Positions 355 through 14,342 of a DNA stretch of 14,342 bases are shown piece after piece (position 1 is the stretch's first letter; each line of letters opens with the position of its first letter). The notes beneath the pieces were generated by a model that was given only the letters and a program-made list of their open reading frames with translations, was not told the DNA's origin and ran no database searches. Source of the stretch: a virus. Taxonomy: Duplodnaviria; Heunggongvirae; Uroviricota; Caudoviricetes. Location: IMG/VR virus record IMGVR_UViG_2695420539_000017; one strand, 5' to 3'. The translations under genes were made by a program, and so were the position numbers.

Positions 355-412
355 AAAAAGGGCGGCAGAGCAGTCACGGAGTAAAACTGATACCGCCAAA
401 CGTCACCAGAAA
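355..412 (-). ncRNA. dicF: DicF small regulatory RNA (antisense regulator of ftsZ), with 3' U-tail
   Basis: Reverse complement of 355-412 reads UUUCUGGUGACGUUUGGCGGUAUCAGUUUUACUCCGUGACUGCUCUGCCGCCCUUUUU, matching the DicF sequence from memory. Sits between ydfC and dicB as expected. Confidence 0.85.
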
Positions 413-3666: not shown

Positions 3667-5263
<1,597 letters not shown>

Positions 5264-5593
5264 TGGAGCACCTGTGTTGTTCTGAGGTGAGCATATCACC
5301 TCTGTTCAGGTGGCCAAATTCAGTGTGCCACTACAAAGTGATGAGATTAAAGTTTATTAGTTCAGATATTGATTGGCTCTTTTGTGGAGTAGGGTAGAGT
5401 TAGTGTGTTTGTCTGCTTGGTGCCAGCAGCGGATATGTTTAACAACAGAAAGCATTCAGCATGGTTAGTGGATTTGCAAAGTGGATTAGGATTTGAGAAA
5501 CTTTGATGAAGTTGTAAAGCTTGTTTCTATAAAAATAGAAATTTAACTAATAGTTAAACACACCTCCAGCTTCATTGAAAAGGATTATTAGCT

Positions 5594-8736: not shown

Positions 8737-8911
8737 TGCTGCGGGTGCTTGAGGCTATCTGCCTCGGGCATCAACACCAAAGGCAGATAGAGAAAAGCCC
8801 CAGTTAACATTACGCGTCCGGCAAGACGCTTAACATTAATCTGAGGCCATATCTATGCTCTACACACGTAGGTTAGCCTCTTACGTGCCGAAAGGCAAGG
8901 AGAAGCAGGCT

Positions 8912-9067
8912 ATGAAGCAGCAAAAGGCGATGTTAATCGCCCTGATCGTCATCTGTTTAACCGTCATAGTGACGACACTGGTAACGAGGAAAGACCTCTG
9001 CGAGGTACGAATCCGAACCGGCCAGACGGAGGTCGCTGTCTTCACAGCTTACGAACCTGAGGAGTAA
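8912..9067 (+). CDS. hokD: Hok-family type I toxin (HokD/RelF-like), 51 aa
   Basis: MKQQKAMLIALIVICLTVIVTTLVTRKDLCEVRIRTGQTEVAVFTAYEPEE matches HokD as I recall it; AAGGAG 9 nt upstream of ATG 8912. The track ORF 8855..9067 is an in-frame upstream extension. Confidence 0.9.
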   Translation: MKQQKAMLIALIVICLTVIVTTLVTRKDLCEVRIRTGQTEVAVFTAYEPEE

Positions 9068-9535: not shown

Positions 9536-9601
9536 ACTCATCTACAATCTTGCGCGGGGCTGAACTCCCGCTGAGTAACACCGTGCCACCGGAGAAAACC
9601 G

Positions 9602-9880
9602 ATGGCACGCAACGTAAAATATTACAATTCTGATAATTCGCCCGTTCTTGCCTGCACGCACGAGCGGTATTCTCACGCATTCAAGTCTGAATGGTTCCAA
9701 CACCCTCCATGTACTGAAGAGCAGGCTGAATGGACAATTCAGTGTTACCGCAGGCGCGGATACGAGGTTAAGAAAGCCCTTAGTCTCGACTACCGTCACT
9801 GGATAATCTCCGTCAGGCTTCCTTACTCTGAACGCCCACCGCGTCCGTCTCGCACATTCCAGCAACGCATCTGGAGGTAA
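9602..9880 (+). CDS. Hypothetical phage protein, 92 aa
   Basis: Complete ORF with GGAGA upstream of ATG 9602; its stop is 1 nt before the YdfU-like start. No family recognised. Confidence 0.55.
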   Translation: MARNVKYYNSDNSPVLACTHERYSHAFKSEWFQHPPCTEEQAEWTIQCYRRRGYEVKKALSLDYRHWIISVRLPYSERPPRPSRTFQQRIWR

Positions 9881-9881
9881 C

Positions 9882-10931
9882 GTGCGGGTATTACTTCGAC
9901 CTGTTCTGGTACCGGAACTCGGGCTGGTGATCGTTAAGCCGGGCCGTGAATCCATGCCAGTATTCCACAATACCCGGGTATTGATGGAGCCGGAACCGAA
10001 AAGCATGCGTAATCTGCCGTCCGGGGTCGTTCCTGCCGTTCGCCAGCCGCTGGTGGAAGACAAAACATTGCTGCCGTTTTTCAGTAACGCACGGGTGATT
10101 CGTGCTGCTGGTGGTGCTGGTGCATTGTCTGACTGGCTGTTGCGCCATATTAAATCCTGCCAGTGGCCACACGGCGATTATCATCACAGCGAAACTGTCA
10201 TTCACCGTTATGGTACCGGCGCAATGGTGTTGTGCTGGCACTGCGACAACCAGCTGCGTGACCAGACATCCGAATCACTCGAGCAACTTGCTCATCAAAA
10301 CCTGTCAGCATGGATGATTGACGTCATCGGTCACGCAATAAGCGGTACGCAGGAGCGTGAATTATCTTTGGCTGAATTATCCTGGTGGGCGGTCCGCAAT
10401 CAGGTGGCGGACGCGCTACCGGAAGCGGTATTACGTCGTTCGCTGGGGGGGCGTGCGGAAAAAATCCGCTCAATGTACCGTGAAAGCGACATCGTGCCGG
10501 GAGAGCAGACCGCCACCAGCATACTGAAGCAGCGCACAAAAAATCTTGCGCCGTTGCTTCACACCCACCAGCCACAGAACCCAGCACAGGAAAAGGCGGT
10601 GGTCAGCATTACCGTTGATCCGGAGTCTCCGGAATCTTTCATGAGGCGACCTAAACGTCGCCGTTGGGTAAATGAGAAATATACGAGCTGGGTGAAGACA
10701 CAGCCGTGTGCGTGTTGTGGTCAGCCAGCCGACGATCCCCATCACCTGATTGGTCACGGTCAGGGAGGGATGGGAACAAAATCCCACGATATTTTCACGC
10801 TACCGCTGTGTCGGGAGCATCACAACGAGCTTCATGCGGATCCGCTGGCGTTCGAAGAAAAGCATGGTTCCCAGATTGATTTAATTTTTCGTTTTCTTGA
10901 TCACGCCTTTGCAACCGGCGTGCTCGGGTAA
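9882..10931 (+). CDS. ydfU: DUF968 / YdfU-like protein (349 aa) with C-terminal HNH-like Cys/His motif
   Basis: GTG start with GGAGG 6 nt upstream; length matches Qin YdfU (349 aa). C-terminal CACCGQPADDPHHLIGHG...SHDIFTLPLCREHHNELH (about 10706-10836). Confidence 0.8.
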   Translation: MRVLLRPVLVPELGLVIVKPGRESMPVFHNTRVLMEPEPKSMRNLPSGVVPAVRQPLVEDKTLLPFFSNARVIRAAGGAGALSDWLLRHIKSCQWPHGDYHHSETVIHRYGTGAMVLCWHCDNQLRDQTSESLEQLAHQNLSAWMIDVIGHAISGTQERELSLAELSWWAVRNQVADALPEAVLRRSLGGRAEKIRSMYRESDIVPGEQTATSILKQRTKNLAPLLHTHQPQNPAQEKAVVSITVDPESPESFMRRPKRRRWVNEKYTSWVKTQPCACCGQPADDPHHLIGHGQGGMGTKSHDIFTLPLCREHHNELHADPLAFEEKHGSQIDLIFRFLDHAFATGVLG

Positions 10932-10943
10932 AAGAGGTTACTG

Positions 10944-11303
10944 ATGCGTATAGAGTTTGTTTTGCCTTACCCGCCAACGGTGAACACCTACTGGCGGCGT
11001 CGTGGCAGCACATATTTTGTATCAAAAGTCGGTGAGCGTTATCGCCGTGATGTGGCGCTTATTGTTCGCCAGCAGCAACTGAAATTAAACCTGTCCGGAA
11101 GGCTGGCAATAAAAATTATTGCAGAGCCACCGGATAAGCGCCGTCGTGACCTGGACAATATCCTGAAGGCACCACTGGATGCACTGACGCATGCGGGGCT
11201 GCTCATAGACGACGAGCAGTTTGATGAAATTAATATTGTGCGCGGTCAGCTTGTTCCTGGTGGGCGGTTGGGGATAAAAATCACAGAACTGGGGTGCGCA
11301 TGA
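10944..11303 (+). CDS. rusA: RusA-family Holliday junction resolvase, 119 aa
   Basis: AAGAGG ribosome-binding site; conserved RusA-like core ...PDKRRRDLDNILKAPLDALTHAGLLIDDEQ... resembling E. coli RusA (...[20 protein letters not shown]...). Confidence 0.85.
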   Translation: MRIEFVLPYPPTVNTYWRRRGSTYFVSKVGERYRRDVALIVRQQQLKLNLSGRLAIKIIAEPPDKRRRDLDNILKAPLDALTHAGLLIDDEQFDEINIVRGQLVPGGRLGIKITELGCA

Positions 11304-11989
11304 ATAACCAGTATTTACAGTTTGTGCGTGAGCAGCTCATTATCGCCACCGCTGATTTGAGTGGGGCAACAAAAGGTCAGCTTGAAGCCTGGCAGGAGAA
11401 TGCCATGTTCGATACAGGGCGTTACAGGCGTAAAAAAATCCGGTACCGCGATGAAGTGACTGGAAAAATGATAACGCGGGATAATCCACCAATCCCGGGA
11501 AAGCAATCGCTGGCGAAGGGGACGTCAATTCCTCTGGTCAGTCCGATTGAGTTTTCGACATCATCGTGGCGGCGGGCTGTTCTGTCTCTTGAAGAACATC
11601 ATAAAGCCTGGTTGTTGTGGTGTTACAGCGGGAGTATTTGTTGGGAATATCAGATCGCGATAACACAGTGGGCGTGGAATGAATTTAATACTCAATCCGG
11701 TACCAGAAAAATTGCAGGGAAAACGCAGGAACGCCTGAAAAAATTAATCTGGCTGGCGGCGCAGGCAGTAAAAGCAGAACTTTTTGGTGGGGAAGGTTAT
11801 GAATACAAGGAGCTGGCATTACTGGTGGGAGTGACAACTAAAAACTGGTCCAAAACATTTACTCGTCACTGGGTTGCAATGAAACACATTTTTCACCGAC
11901 TGGATAGTGAGGCTTTATTGTTTGTAATGAGAACGCGTTCAAAACAAAAGGCGGCATTTTCAAAGCAAAGTGTTGCAAAAGTAGATTGA
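11300..11989 (+). CDS. Q-like late-gene antiterminator (QuuQ-type), 229 aa; start overlaps the rusA stop (ATGA)
   Basis: Last ORF of the nin-like region, immediately upstream of a PR'/tR'-like promoter-terminator pair and the tRNA cluster. Call rests mainly on position; sequence family not verified. Confidence 0.55.
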   Translation: MNNQYLQFVREQLIIATADLSGATKGQLEAWQENAMFDTGRYRRKKIRYRDEVTGKMITRDNPPIPGKQSLAKGTSIPLVSPIEFSTSSWRRAVLSLEEHHKAWLLWCYSGSICWEYQIAITQWAWNEFNTQSGTRKIAGKTQERLKKLIWLAAQAVKAELFGGEGYEYKELALLVGVTTKNWSKTFTRHWVAMKHIFHRLDSEALLFVMRTRSKQKAAFSKQSVAKVD

Positions 11990-12001
11990 AAGGCATATAT
12001 T
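11973..12001 (+). promoter_or_regulatory. Candidate late promoter PR' (-35 TTGCAA 11973-11978, 17-bp spacer, -10 TATATT 11996-12001)
   Basis: Located at the 3' end of the Q-like gene and about 55 nt upstream of a strong intrinsic terminator, as in lambdoid PR'-tR' units. Confidence 0.4.
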
Positions 12002-12052
12002 TCATGCAAATCTGATATTTTGCCGATTTTGTACGTGATGGCAAAAGCAAAC

Positions 12053-12080
12053 AAAACCCGCCCACAAGCGGGTTTTTTTG
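12053..12080 (+). terminator. tR'-like rho-independent terminator
   Basis: CCCGC-CCACAA-GCGGG hairpin (12057-12072) followed by TTTTTTT (12073-12079). Confidence 0.8.
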
Positions 12081-12199
12081 TGCCACTTATCTCGGATAGA
12101 CATGGTGAATGCGCTGGTGGAGGAAGCAAGGGTAATTTTTAACCAGGTGATTCTTGAATGCTTGCAACATTGATTTCGTAACGTTATTATCCTGCGCCC

Positions 12200-12275
12200 G
12201 GCCCTTTAGCTCAGTGGTGAGAGCGAGCGACTCATAATCGCCAGGCCGCTGGTTCAAATCCAGCAAGGGCCACCA
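12200..12275 (+). tRNA. ileZ: tRNA-Ile2 type (anticodon CAU, ileX/ileZ-like; could formally be annotated Met)
   Basis: Cloverleaf: acceptor GGCCCTT/AAGGGCC, D-stem GCTC, anticodon loop CTCATAA, T-arm GCTGG-TTCAAAT-CCAGC, encoded CCA. Close to E. coli ileX from memory. Gene symbol by analogy with Stx phages. Confidence 0.8.
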
Positions 12276-12282
12276 TCACATA

Positions 12283-12359
12283 CCGCCATTAGCTCATCGG
12301 GATAGAACGCCAGCCTTCGAAGCTGGTTTCGCGGGGTTCGAGTCTCCGATGGCGGTCCA
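12283..12359 (+). tRNA. argN: tRNA-Arg (anticodon UCG by my fold)
   Basis: Anticodon stem CCAGC/GCTGG with loop CTTCGAA; T-loop TTCGAGT; acceptor CCGCCAT/ATGGCGG; encoded CCA. One D-stem mismatch and a C1-G72 pair are atypical. Symbol by positional analogy only. Confidence 0.65.
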
Positions 12360-12372
12360 TTATCGGTATTCT

Positions 12373-12449
12373 GCGTTTTTAGCTCAGCCGGACAGAGCAA
12401 TTGCCTTCTAAGCAATCGGTCACTGGTTCGAACCCAGTACAACGCACCA
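12373..12449 (+). tRNA. argO: tRNA-Arg (anticodon UCU, reads AGA)
   Basis: Anticodon stem ATTGC/GCAAT with loop CTTCTAA; T-arm ACTGG-TTCGAAC-CCAGT; encoded CCA; one acceptor-stem mismatch. Symbol by positional analogy only. Confidence 0.7.
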
Positions 12450-12618
12450 CACTTATTTTCCCTCGCTCGCTTTTGCGGACCTTTTTTGTATCCGCACCAC
12501 GCCCGGCGCATACCAACCACAGAGCCTTTCGGGGGGAGCTTATGGAGTGGTCAGTGTGACTTTCTCTGTGGGCAGATCGCTCCCGGGCGTTGGCTCACCC
12601 ACCCAAAGGAACGTCACG

Positions 12619-13051
12619 ATGTTTGGTATTTTTGGTAAAAAAAGCCCGCAGAGCGGCAACGGAAATTAAAAAGTTTGAAAAACGCGATCTGGCACAGGTG
12701 GTGATTAACGCCGCATACCTGGTGGCCTGTGCAGATGGTGAATGTGAGGCTTCCTAGAAAGCGAAGATCGAACAGGTACTGCGTAATCAGCCTGCGCTGT
12801 ACGCGTTTACGTCAGAAATTAATGCGATTAGCGCAACCATTATCGGTCAGCTGGATACGAACTTTAAAACTGGTCGTCGTGCGGCGTTACGTGAGATCGA
12901 GGATGTGAAACACGATACGCGTGAAGCGGAAGATGTGCTGGATGTGGCGGTGGCCATTGCGGAGGCAGACGGCGAAATTGAGCCGGAAGAGCGCAAGGTG
13001 CTGGAAGAGATTGCCGGTGTTCTGGGTCTTCGTCTGGAGAATTACCTGTGA
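12619..13051 (+). pseudogene. TerB-like domain gene, disrupted (frameshift in an A7 run plus in-frame TAG)
   Basis: ATG 12619 frame (MFGIFGKK...) stops at 12667 after the A-run 12637-12643. The adjacent frame encodes ...KKFEKRDLAQVVINAAYLVACADGECEAS, TAG at 12755-12757, then KAKIEQVLRNQPALYAF...EAEDVLDVAVAIAEADGEIEPEERKVLEEIAGVLGLRLENYL, stop 13049-13051. Confidence 0.65.
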
Positions 13052-13215
13052 CGGTAAAACTGCGCCTGACTGTGGCTGCACTCCTGCTGTTTCTGGTGGT
13101 GATGGTGGATTTCACCAGCAGAATCATGTCGGTGCTGGCGGATGGGGTGCTGGTCTGCGGCATTATGGTATTGCTGTGGCCGGTGATAAAAAGAAACAGC
13201 CTGCATAATGCTTGA
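13048..13215 (+). CDS. Candidate small membrane protein (55 aa from GTG 13048; internal ATGs at 13102 and 13126)
   Basis: Hydrophobic product ...LTVAALLLFLVVMVDFTSRIMSVLADGVLVCGIMVLLWPVIKRNSLHNA; GGAGA 8 nt upstream of the GTG, which overlaps the TerB-frame stop. Confidence 0.4.
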   Translation: MTVKLRLTVAALLLFLVVMVDFTSRIMSVLADGVLVCGIMVLLWPVIKRNSLHNA

Positions 13216-13415
13216 TTTTTTTGTTTGCTGTTTATTAAAAACACTTCTGCATGGTGAATCCCCCTGTGCGGTGGGGCAATCAGCAAGAAGGAATATGGGG
13301 TAATCGCGGATTCAGGTGCTGATACTGAATTCACCGGGAGGCACCCGGCACCATGCTTTGCCACAAAAGTGTTATTTCTGTTTTTCTCAAACTATCATCG
13401 TTATCCCTTTATTTT

Positions 13416-13443
13416 CGGCTGCGCATGGCGCGGCCTTTTTTTT
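13416..13443 (+). terminator. Rho-independent terminator upstream of the esterase gene
   Basis: CGGCTGCGC-ATG-GCGCGGCC hairpin (13416-13435) followed by TTTTTTTT (13436-13443). Confidence 0.6.
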
Positions 13444-13529
13444 ACGACCAGCCACTGGCAGATGGTCATCCTGTGATTTGATTCCGCTTCCGGCTTTTTA
13501 ACTCTGTTCCTCTACACGGGAGAAATTCG

Positions 13530-14342
13530 ATGTCGATTAAACATTATGATGTTGTCAGGGCGGCGTCGCCGTCAGACCTTGCGGAAAAGCTGACACACAA
13601 ACTGAAAGAGGGCTGGCAGCCATACGGCGGACCGGTTGCCATTACGCCGTACACACTGATGCAGGCGGTGGCTATTGAAGGAGAGCCACAGGTCGGCCCT
13701 TCATCTGAGCCGGATTGGTACTACGTCATCGTACTGGCCGGGCAGTCCAATGCCATGGCTTACGGTGAAGGGCTTCCGCTGCCGGATTCATACGATGCTC
13801 CGGATCCGCGCATTAAACAGCTGGCGCGCCGCAGTACAGTGACGCCGGGCGGGGCTGCCTGCAGATATAACGATATTATTCCGGCTGACCACTGTCTGCA
13901 TGATGTGCAGGATATGAGTACGCTGAATCATCCGAGGGCTGACCTGAGCAAAGGGCAGTACGGCTGTGTCGGCCAGGGTTTACATATTGCCAAAAAACTG
14001 CTCCCGTATATCCCGAATAACGCGGGGATCCTGCTGGTACCATGCTGTCGTGGTGGTTCGGCATTTACCCAGGGCGCGGAGGGGACATTCAGCGAGTCCA
14101 CGGGGGCCAGTCAGGATTCGGCACGCTGGGGGGTGGGCAAGCCGTTATATCAGGATCTGATTTCCCGCACAAAAGCGGCATTGCAGAAAAATCCCAAAAA
14201 CGTTCTGCTGGCCGTCTGCTGGATGCAGGGTGAGTTTGACATGAGCGCCGCCACCCACGCACAGCAACCTGCGCTGTTTACAGCCATGCTGACACAGTTT
14301 CGTGCTGACCTCTCCGTGTTTAACGCGCAGTGCCATGGTGGC
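13530..14342 (+). CDS. Prophage sialate O-acetylesterase NanS-p-like (DUF1737 N-terminus + SGNH/SASA domain), 5' part only
   Basis: ATG 13530 with GGGAGA upstream; open to the window end. N-terminus MSIKHYDVVRAASPSDLAEKLTHKLKEGWQPYGGPV... and GQSN motif at residues 71-74, typical of the esterase gene found downstream of stx in Stx phages. Confidence 0.8.
   Translation, partial: MSIKHYDVVRAASPSDLAEKLTHKLKEGWQPYGGPVAITPYTLMQAVAIEGEPQVGPSSEPDWYYVIVLAGQSNAMAYGEGLPLPDSYDAPDPRIKQLARRSTVTPGGAACRYNDIIPADHCLHDVQDMSTLNHPRADLSKGQYGCVGQGLHIAKKLLPYIPNNAGILLVPCCRGGSAFTQGAEGTFSESTGASQDSARWGVGKPLYQDLISRTKAALQKNPKNVLLAVCWMQGEFDMSAATHAQQPALFTAMLTQFRADLSVFNAQCHGG

Follow-up and report, generated by a model that had tools for sequence, protein, structure and literature searches.

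The late-region segment that lies in this prophage where Stx phages carry their toxin genes is best read as a tciA/tciB-type cassette, in which the TerB-like gene has been inactivated twice over by lesions that were inherited and the small DUF3927 gene is intact. We put the probability of this reading at about 0.88. The window is the whole stretch of DNA analysed, 14,342 nt of a Caudoviricetes genome (IMG/VR record IMGVR_UViG_2695420539_000017). Judged by alignment, the locus is the equivalent of the stx slot, situated downstream of Q between tRNAs of the ileZ/argN/argO type and nanS-p. Its features are listed in Table 1.

Table 1. Features of the cargo slot and its flanks (window coordinates).
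Feature	Position	Strand	Basis and remarks
Promoter-like site TTGCAA-17-TATTAT, 5' of the tRNAs	12162..12190	+	Consensus scan; aligns with 933W "pT; putative tRNA promoter"; putative function
tRNA trio: CAT (Ile2/ileZ-type), Arg-TCG, Arg-TCT	12200..12449	+	ARAGORN; Rfam tRNA; PGAP tRNA-Ile/Arg/Arg in identical copies
Post-tRNA segment common to 933W; left edge of the cargo slot	12450..12498	+	933W homology ends at 12498; possible terminator annotated here in 933W
Cargo cassette in place of stx2AB	12499..13230	+	No 933W homology between breakpoints 12498 and 13231
TerB-family (tciA-like) pseudogene, 433 nt vs. 432 nt intact	12619..13051	+	Pfam TerB; phrog_632; 2JXU; JLK-2012 and P1 TciA; PGAP
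In-frame TTG, used by PGAP as start; masks the frameshift	12623..12625	+	PGAP CDS 4174-4602 in L001 = window 12623-13051
A7 run, +1 insertion relative to A6	12637..12643	+	Alignment with JLK-2012
TAG nonsense codon at codon 46, GAG in intact copies	12755..12757	+	Alignment with intact homologues
DUF3927 / TciB-like intact ORF, 55 codons	13048..13215	+	Pfam DUF3927; phrog_1470; PGAP WP_000216649.1
STnc100-family sRNA (PasD relative); right slot edge, common to Stx phages	13220..13392	+	Rfam RF02076
Terminator-like hairpin followed by T8 run	13417..13445	+	Consensus scan only
nanS-p 5' part (SASA-family sialate O-acetylesterase), runs off the window	13530..14342	+	Translation MSIKHYDV...; PGAP SASA family carbohydrate esterase

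The order annotated in 933W is Q, pR', pT, ileZ-argN-argO, a possible terminator, stx2A, stx2B and the SASA esterase. Positions 12162–12498 of the window align in BLAST with the 933W segment from pT to 49 nt past argO (90.6% identity), the homology breaks at stx2AB, and it resumes at window position 13231, that is, 87 nt after stx2B. Given these breakpoints, the cassette (732 bp) cleanly replaces a 1369-bp stx2AB segment, as the preliminary description of this DNA had proposed when it placed the locus between the tRNA cluster and nanS-p. On the right, patches 13231–13277 and 13327–13356 match the stxB–nanS-p spacer (an STnc100-like spacer) of 933W and of a Stx1a phage, which has the same right flank as the window, and between nanS-p and the yjhS gene of an Stx1a phage the identity is 91.5%.

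The tRNA genes were located by ARAGORN at 12200–12275 (CAT), 12283–12359 (Arg TCG) and 12373–12449 (Arg TCT); the CAT-anticodon tRNA is called Met by ARAGORN and Ile by PGAP in identical copies. A tR'-like terminator is found at 12053–12076, and the cassette lies downstream of both Q and this site. The predicted fold of the 170-nt leader (12450–12625) is no more stable than that of shuffled sequences (z = 0.44), and the same leader has no Rfam match. The STnc100-family sRNA scores 100.8 bits against RF02076, with a gathering score of 47, and the start codon of nanS-p is ATG 13530. A 2026 preprint on Pas sRNAs (bioRxiv 10.64898/2026.05.13.724894), which is also the background source for the STnc100-family sRNA, names TerB as one of the genes conserved next to prophage sRNAs of such regions.

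For family assignment, the TerB-like gene was translated after repair of both lesions (one A deleted, GAG in place of TAG), which yields 143 residues. The repaired protein scores 45.7 bits with the Pfam TerB profile (PF05099, cut-off 24.4), matches phrog_632 ("tellurite resistance") over 143 of 143 positions (E = 2e-68), and aligns by residues 15–137 with chain residues 21–144 of the solved Klebsiella TerB (2JXU, E = 4e-7). Both acidic DG...E motifs are present, Glu46 aligns with a glutamate of 2JXU, and the identity is 96.5% to TciA of JLK-2012 and 41% to TciA of P1. By both the profile and the solved domain, the repaired translation is thus assigned to the TerB family. TerB proteins of this stand-alone kind, about 143 residues long, are encoded in 129 phage records, ranging from jumbo phages of Erwinia to phages of Vibrio and Pseudomonas, and the alignment covers at least 80% of the length in every case. 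The "tellurite/colicin/cell division" name is given to such proteins by homology only, P1 included, and our literature search found no tellurite, colicin or phage resistance experiment on this phage TerB family; searches for DUF3927, or for TerB together with prophage and Shiga toxin, returned nothing specific to the cassette. Among the PADLOC defence models, TerB has only a weak local match to PDC-S48 (E = 0.006, 13.7 bits) and DUF3927 has none; neither PADLOC nor NCBIfam gives anything above threshold.

An uninterrupted TerB reading frame was not found: the gene carries both the extra A in the run at 12637–12643 and the in-frame TAG at 12755–12757, and the sequence statements of the preliminary description about these two lesions are all correct. 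The frame opened by ATG 12619, which has AAGGAA 8 nt upstream, crosses the A7 run and ends at TAA 12667–12669 after 16 codons. The TerB frame (+1) reaches TGA 13049–13051 and contains the TAG, 112 nt downstream of the A-run. In the alignment to intact homologues that the preliminary description had suggested, the gene is 432 nt long in both JLK-2012 and Evi; the A-run region reads GGT-A6-GCC in JLK-2012 and is an interrupted run, AAAAAGAAAA, in Evi, and codon 46 is GAG in both. The glutamate at this position is also conserved in Klebsiella TerB 2JXU and in P1 TciA. In identical copies PGAP records a pseudogene with an "internal stop" and makes no frameshift call, because it places the CDS start at TTG 12623, which is in the TerB frame 4 nt after ATG 12619. 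The lesson for annotation is that a TTG following the ATG in this way makes PGAP show the internal stop and hide the frameshift.

Homopolymer indels are a frequent sequencing error, and the preliminary description had itself allowed for the A-run being such an error with TAG as the true terminus, or for the region being known non-coding DNA flanking stx. Both possibilities are refuted, and we give them practically no chance. Several independent complete genomes, which come from different laboratories and hosts, match an 811-nt stretch (12450–13260) at 100% identity, the TAG is found at 1005 places, and exact pattern scans of IMG/VR gave 48 stretches with the A7 string and 50 with the A6 string; the lesions are therefore real alleles. 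A true terminus is at odds with GAG in the intact homologues. Positions 12499–13230 do not align with the stx flanks of 933W, and the homology to TerB/TciA and to DUF3927/TciB covers full-length proteins, which argues against non-coding DNA.

The second gene of the cassette carries no lesion in any of its 55 codons. It scores 60.4 bits against DUF3927 (PF13064, cut-off 25), matches phrog_1470 ("TciB-like") with E = 2e-29, and is 51% identical to TciB of P1. The preliminary description of a hydrophobic ORF whose GTG overlaps the TerB stop holds: the overlap is GTGA at 13048–13051, and there are two hydrophobic segments, with Kyte-Doolittle 15-residue means peaking at 2.66 (residues 7–21) and 2.56 (residues 29–43 and 33–47), so that the two-helix call is that of a hydropathy calculation and not of a topology predictor. 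GTG 13048 retains its own GGAG 8 nt upstream, and therefore DUF3927 can probably still initiate independently.

The cassette is widespread: of 5426 complete E. coli genomes, 807 carry it, at approximately 3127 places in all and with five copies in the median carrier. Alleles were counted with 45-mers, and a TAG-centred 45-mer cannot seed a megablast match on a GAG copy. The TAG allele occurs at 1005 places at least, in 577 of the 5426 genomes; GAG occurs with window-type flanks at 164 places (159 genomes), with Evi-type flanks at 1374 places (578 genomes), and with JLK-type flanks at 135 places (124 genomes). About a third of the cassette copies thus carry TAG, with up to five such copies per genome, and in some genomes, such as those of strains MEI003, IAL7252 and Z1323CEC0015, a TAG copy is the sole copy of the cassette. 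Moreover, O157:H7 has both kinds, its intact, PGAP-valid copy being flanked by tRNA-Ile/Arg, DUF3927 and the esterase, and PV15-279 has a second TAG copy in another prophage.

In the IMG/VR loci, TAG is observed on at least four 5' backgrounds, namely A7, A6, Evi-like and 5'-deleted; in the last of these a remnant lacking its start comes straight after Q, and the tRNAs are absent. Conversely, A7 combined with GAG is represented by 13 haplotypes. All A7 copies belong to one related 5' haplotype family, which indicates a single origin, and one haplotype exists in both the A6 and A7 forms. As the lesions are spread over these backgrounds and over many prophages, we consider both to be inherited alleles shuffled by recombination, which did not arise here. 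The counts of IMG/VR loci are not independent, since the sample was selected by pattern and includes duplicate fetches of the same contig and copies related by descent and recombination. The preliminary description had spoken of a late slot occupied by different, now degenerating cargo; the different cargo, a TerB gene plus a membrane ORF with the TerB gene broken, is confirmed, but the decay did not take place in this prophage, as the alleles are shared with hundreds of others.

Among complete genomes, the window is best matched in BLAST by that of strain MEI003, in a lambdoid prophage of the Qin/dic type (91% coverage, 98.3% identity) with the gene order dicB, dicA, dicC, ydaT, hokD, DUF968, RusA, Q, tRNAs, TerB pseudogene, DUF3927, SASA esterase, holin, lysozyme. 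The cassette allele itself is common to O157:H7, O111 and many other strains. A prophage of O157:H7 PV15-279, 100% identical over the 811 nt of the cassette region, was considered as the source and rejected, as whole-window BLAST gives 95.8% over 9585–14342 only; since it is not the same prophage, its split integrase and its frameshifted portal and terminase are not defects of the window.

Comparison of private variants makes the intact copies look strongly constrained, and the broken ones look enriched in non-synonymous variants and further damage. The ratio of non-synonymous to synonymous private variants is 7:41 in intact copies, 8:6 in TAG copies and 4:1 in A7-only copies; for the pooled broken copies it is 12:8 against 7:41 (p = 0.0003), a comparison confounded by variant age and made on loci that are neither independent nor randomly sampled. 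When variant age is controlled by restricting the analysis to singletons, the difference has the same direction and is not significant (7:6 in broken and 4:8 in intact copies, p = 0.43). Among the private changes of A7-only copies are R125C and D117E, the latter in the second DG motif. Of 38 TAG haplotypes, 10 have a broken DUF3927, as have 3 of 32 GAG haplotypes, mostly by conversion of W44 to a stop or by frameshifts, and 5' deletions and A7 are further damage accompanying TAG. No further stop or indel was found in codons 16–143 of the 38 TAG haplotypes, so the 3' two-thirds are still open, consistent with a young allele carrying few mutations in total.

We suggest that the cassette is a non-essential accessory ("moron") module carried by a Qin/dic-type lambdoid prophage in its late region. 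Its transcription would start at the Q-dependent late promoter, as part of the late operon, and perhaps also at pT, together with the tRNAs. Ribosomes starting at ATG 12619 would meet the TAA after 16 codons on account of the extra A; those starting at TTG 12623, or slipping in the A-run, would stop at the TAG after approximately 45 residues. The latter product would keep less than one third of the domain, without conserved Glu46 and with nothing of the second ADGEIEPEE motif. As the domain spans residues 15–137, neither the 16-residue nor the 45-residue peptide is expected to form it. Neither lesion originated here; this prophage acquired both through descent or through recombination among lambdoid prophages. 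DUF3927 would be left without translational coupling to its TerB partner; its expression may be lowered, or decay may just not have reached it yet. The original function of the module may have been related to the membrane or to stress, and possibly lay in phage or colicin exclusion, by analogy with the ter operon.

Homopolymeric A runs are known slippage sites, and the preliminary description suggested that slippage in A7 could leave the gene partly alive. This does not hold for the window, because the TAG lies downstream of the run and ends any frame-corrected product at codon 46. A leaky gene would have to combine slippage, or initiation at the TTG, with read-through of the TAG to give enough full-length TerB-like protein; the in-frame TTG would indeed make the frameshift irrelevant, and codons 47–143 are open in 38 of 38 TAG haplotypes. 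However, two independent rare events would be required, and the search for a suppressor tRNA among the adjacent tRNAs, whose anticodons are CAT, TCG and TCT, found none. Nor does the run resemble a site of programmed frameshifting or slippage, as it is not conserved in the intact homologues and the shifted frame is closed at codon 46. The TAG copies, moreover, tolerate a deletion that removes their entire 5' end, start codon included, and the A7-only copies have private changes at conserved positions, so we regard a leaky gene as very unlikely. Even less credible, in our opinion, is a reversible phase-variation switch toggling the cassette between A6 and A7. It could draw on the nearly equal numbers of the two forms in IMG/VR and on the 5' haplotype that exists in both, but the repeated independent changes of tract length on many backgrounds expected of a phase-variable locus were not seen in this limited sample, where only A6 and A7 were looked for and the A7 copies form one closely related haplotype family, as would follow from a single origin. 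Seven bases are also short for a contingency tract, many of the intact copies, another large group, have no such run at all, and the TAG makes any switch moot in the window.

The frequency of TAG, about a third of the copies, is above what one might expect for a neutral null allele. It could point to a truncation that is functional or adaptive, either through a role of a short product or through selection for the loss of TerB (cost, conflict or redundancy with a host ter island), and the several backgrounds of the allele, its multiple copies per genome and its presence as the sole cassette copy agree with this. Candidate short products are the 45-residue N-terminal peptide and a 48-residue C-terminal ORF from GTG 12905, and a family of 48-residue C-terminal fragments does exist in PHROG (phrog_3920). 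We rejected the latter ORF as a re-initiation product, as GTG 12905 has only a GAGG 2 nt upstream, a poor Shine-Dalgarno spacing, and phrog_3920 is most simply explained as an annotation by-product of broken copies. A neutral allele can also spread by gene conversion among co-resident lambdoid prophages, and more decay accompanies TAG (5' deletions, A7, DUF3927 nonsense), which leaves an adaptive truncation quite unlikely. It is likewise unlikely, if a shade less so, that tciA/tciB is a lysogenic-conversion or exclusion module alternating with stx, whose TAG and A7 null alleles are selected and whose DUF3927 is kept as the working part; in that case the very high frequency of these two independent null alleles would reflect selection to switch TerB off, e.g., because TerB is costly, or is redundant or in conflict with the ter island on the EHEC chromosome. 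Drift and gene conversion remain the default explanation of the TAG frequency. The spread of the lesions also shows that null alleles of such cargo move between prophages by recombination and do not arise in place.

The feature as such is already known: the module has a name, the slot has been described, the pseudogene is flagged in RefSeq and the small ORF is recorded as DUF3927. The preliminary description had missed the tciA/tciB name and the existing RefSeq annotation of the pseudogene. Our additions are minor, namely the frameshift hidden by the PGAP start, the breakpoints of the slot, and the frequency and mosaic spread of the null alleles. They do not change the understanding of Stx phages and are of modest importance; what they illustrate is that lambdoid late operons have a general slot for cargo, the one in which Shiga toxin genes are carried and in which tciA/tciB is commonly found instead.

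Among the closest known systems is the tciA/tciB pair of phage JLK-2012, and the pair in the window is identified as a module of this type. JLK-2012 has the same pair in the same place, in the order Q, three tRNAs, tciA (432 nt), tciB overlapping its stop, yjhS/nanS-p and lysis genes, and at the DNA level the identity to the window is approximately 92%. It differs in the tRNA set (Asn/Thr/Gly) and in a divergent C-terminus of tciB. An equivalent, unnamed pair is present in phage Evi and in PPyecE_EH1910. The copies of all three are intact, with an A6 or interrupted run and GAG at codon 46, unlike that of the window.

The module also occurs in P1, a phage-plasmid, and hence outside the lambdoid late operon. 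P1 TciA aligns with the repaired protein over its full length and keeps Glu46, P1 TciB keeps the WP motif, both pairs have a stop-start overlap (TGATG in P1, GTGA in the window), and the P1 tci genes, too, adjoin a tRNA-Ile2(CAT) gene. In contrast to the window, the P1 copies are intact and are accompanied by a third small gene, tciC; tblastn with P1 TciC found no counterpart in window positions 12401–13700 (E ≤ 10), and what follows tciB in the window is the STnc100 sRNA. The P1 genes tciA, tciB and tciC proved non-essential for P1 growth in a CRISPRi screen (PMC10695390).

With TerB of the terZABCDE cluster (tellurite, phage-inhibition and colicin resistance) the gene shares the PF05099 domain and the match to 2JXU, but it stands alone, with no TerZ, TerA, TerC, TerD or TerE genes nearby, has a DUF3927 partner, and is truncated at codon 46. 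Finally, compared to the stx2AB slot of 933W and the stx1AB slot of Stx1a phages, the flanks are alike in kind (pT, tRNAs, STnc100-like patches and nanS-p), whereas the cargo is unrelated: the window holds tciA/tciB and no toxin gene at the position where 933W holds stx2AB.

DUF3927, the tciB-like ORF of 55 codons, is itself broken in some related loci: at codon 44 a nonsense allele (TGG to TAG) recurs in L171, L173 and L149, which are IMG/VR loci with a related cassette, and in other loci. The allele is found in seven haplotypes, all seven of which also carry the nonsense codon 46 of the upstream tciA-like TerB pseudogene. The tryptophan affected is conserved and belongs to a WP motif, which is also seen in TciB of the phage-plasmid P1. 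Further DUF3927 copies have frameshifts close to the A-rich 3' end.

A variant of the locus that lacks both the tRNAs and the first approximately 15 TerB codons is widespread: besides L171, L166 and L169, some 40 further IMG/VR loci have it. In the three named loci, which were the ones examined, the Q-type antiterminator is a different one (273 residues), and it is followed directly by a start-less, TAG-bearing TerB remnant, then by DUF3927 and the esterase (nanS-p). PHROG 3920 groups 48-residue proteins whose match to TerB is confined to its C-terminal third. Its members are probably ORFs called within broken tciA copies like that of the window, and PHROG 3920 would therefore be an annotation artefact.

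Coordinates of features in the window and of one related locus
Feature	Position	Strand	Remarks
DicF sRNA	360-411	-	Rfam, 76.7 bits
IS3-family insertion sequence	4089-5335	-	HTH_Tnp_1 and rve ORFs
Sok antitoxin RNA	8743-8917	+	Rfam, 114 bits
Region with strong terminator hairpin AAAACCCGC...GCGGGTTTTTTT	12005-12078	+	just 3' of Q
tRNA with CAT anticodon	12200-12275		
ORF matching PHROG 3920	12905-13051	+	inside the broken TerB gene
DUF3927 codon 44	13177-13179		
STnc100-family sRNA match	13220-13392	+	100.8 bits, gathering score 47
Terminator-like GC hairpin and T8	13417-13445	+	25 nt beyond the STnc100 match
L178 locus (O157:H7 strain PV15-279)	PV15-279 2114732-2119776		PGAP: 690-nt Q, no tRNAs, then 429-nt TerB pseudogene with internal stop

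The match to the STnc100 sRNA family starts directly 3' of the DUF3927 stop, and the 3' hairpin of the model has no counterpart in it. In patches, this spacer matches the stxB–nanS-p spacers of the Stx2 phage 933W and of an Stx1a phage. PasD sRNAs have been linked to STnc100 (2026 preprint, bioRxiv 10.64898/2026.05.13.724894).

The presence of both Sok and DicF RNAs identifies a Qin/dic-type prophage; in related prophages, Sok adjoins hokD. The IS3-family element is absent from MEI003, the closest complete E. coli genome. It occupies the 3' end of the DUF977 gene and, in doing so, lengthens the DUF977 ORF to 176 codons.

The position of the hairpin, downstream of the late antiterminator Q, corresponds to that of the short transcript which runs from pR' to tR' in lambdoid phages. 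Its region also shows weak, below-threshold similarity to isrK and isrJ (22.7–24.5 bits, E = 0.03–0.07), which are Hfq-binding prophage sRNAs. The tRNA with the CAT anticodon is assigned to Met by ARAGORN, but to Ile by PGAP and in the 933W annotation, the latter label corresponding to ileZ, of the lysidine-modified Ile2 type. In P1, a tRNA-Ile2(CAT) gene lies directly 3' of tciC, and thus the tci module adjoins such a tRNA in two unrelated phage types.
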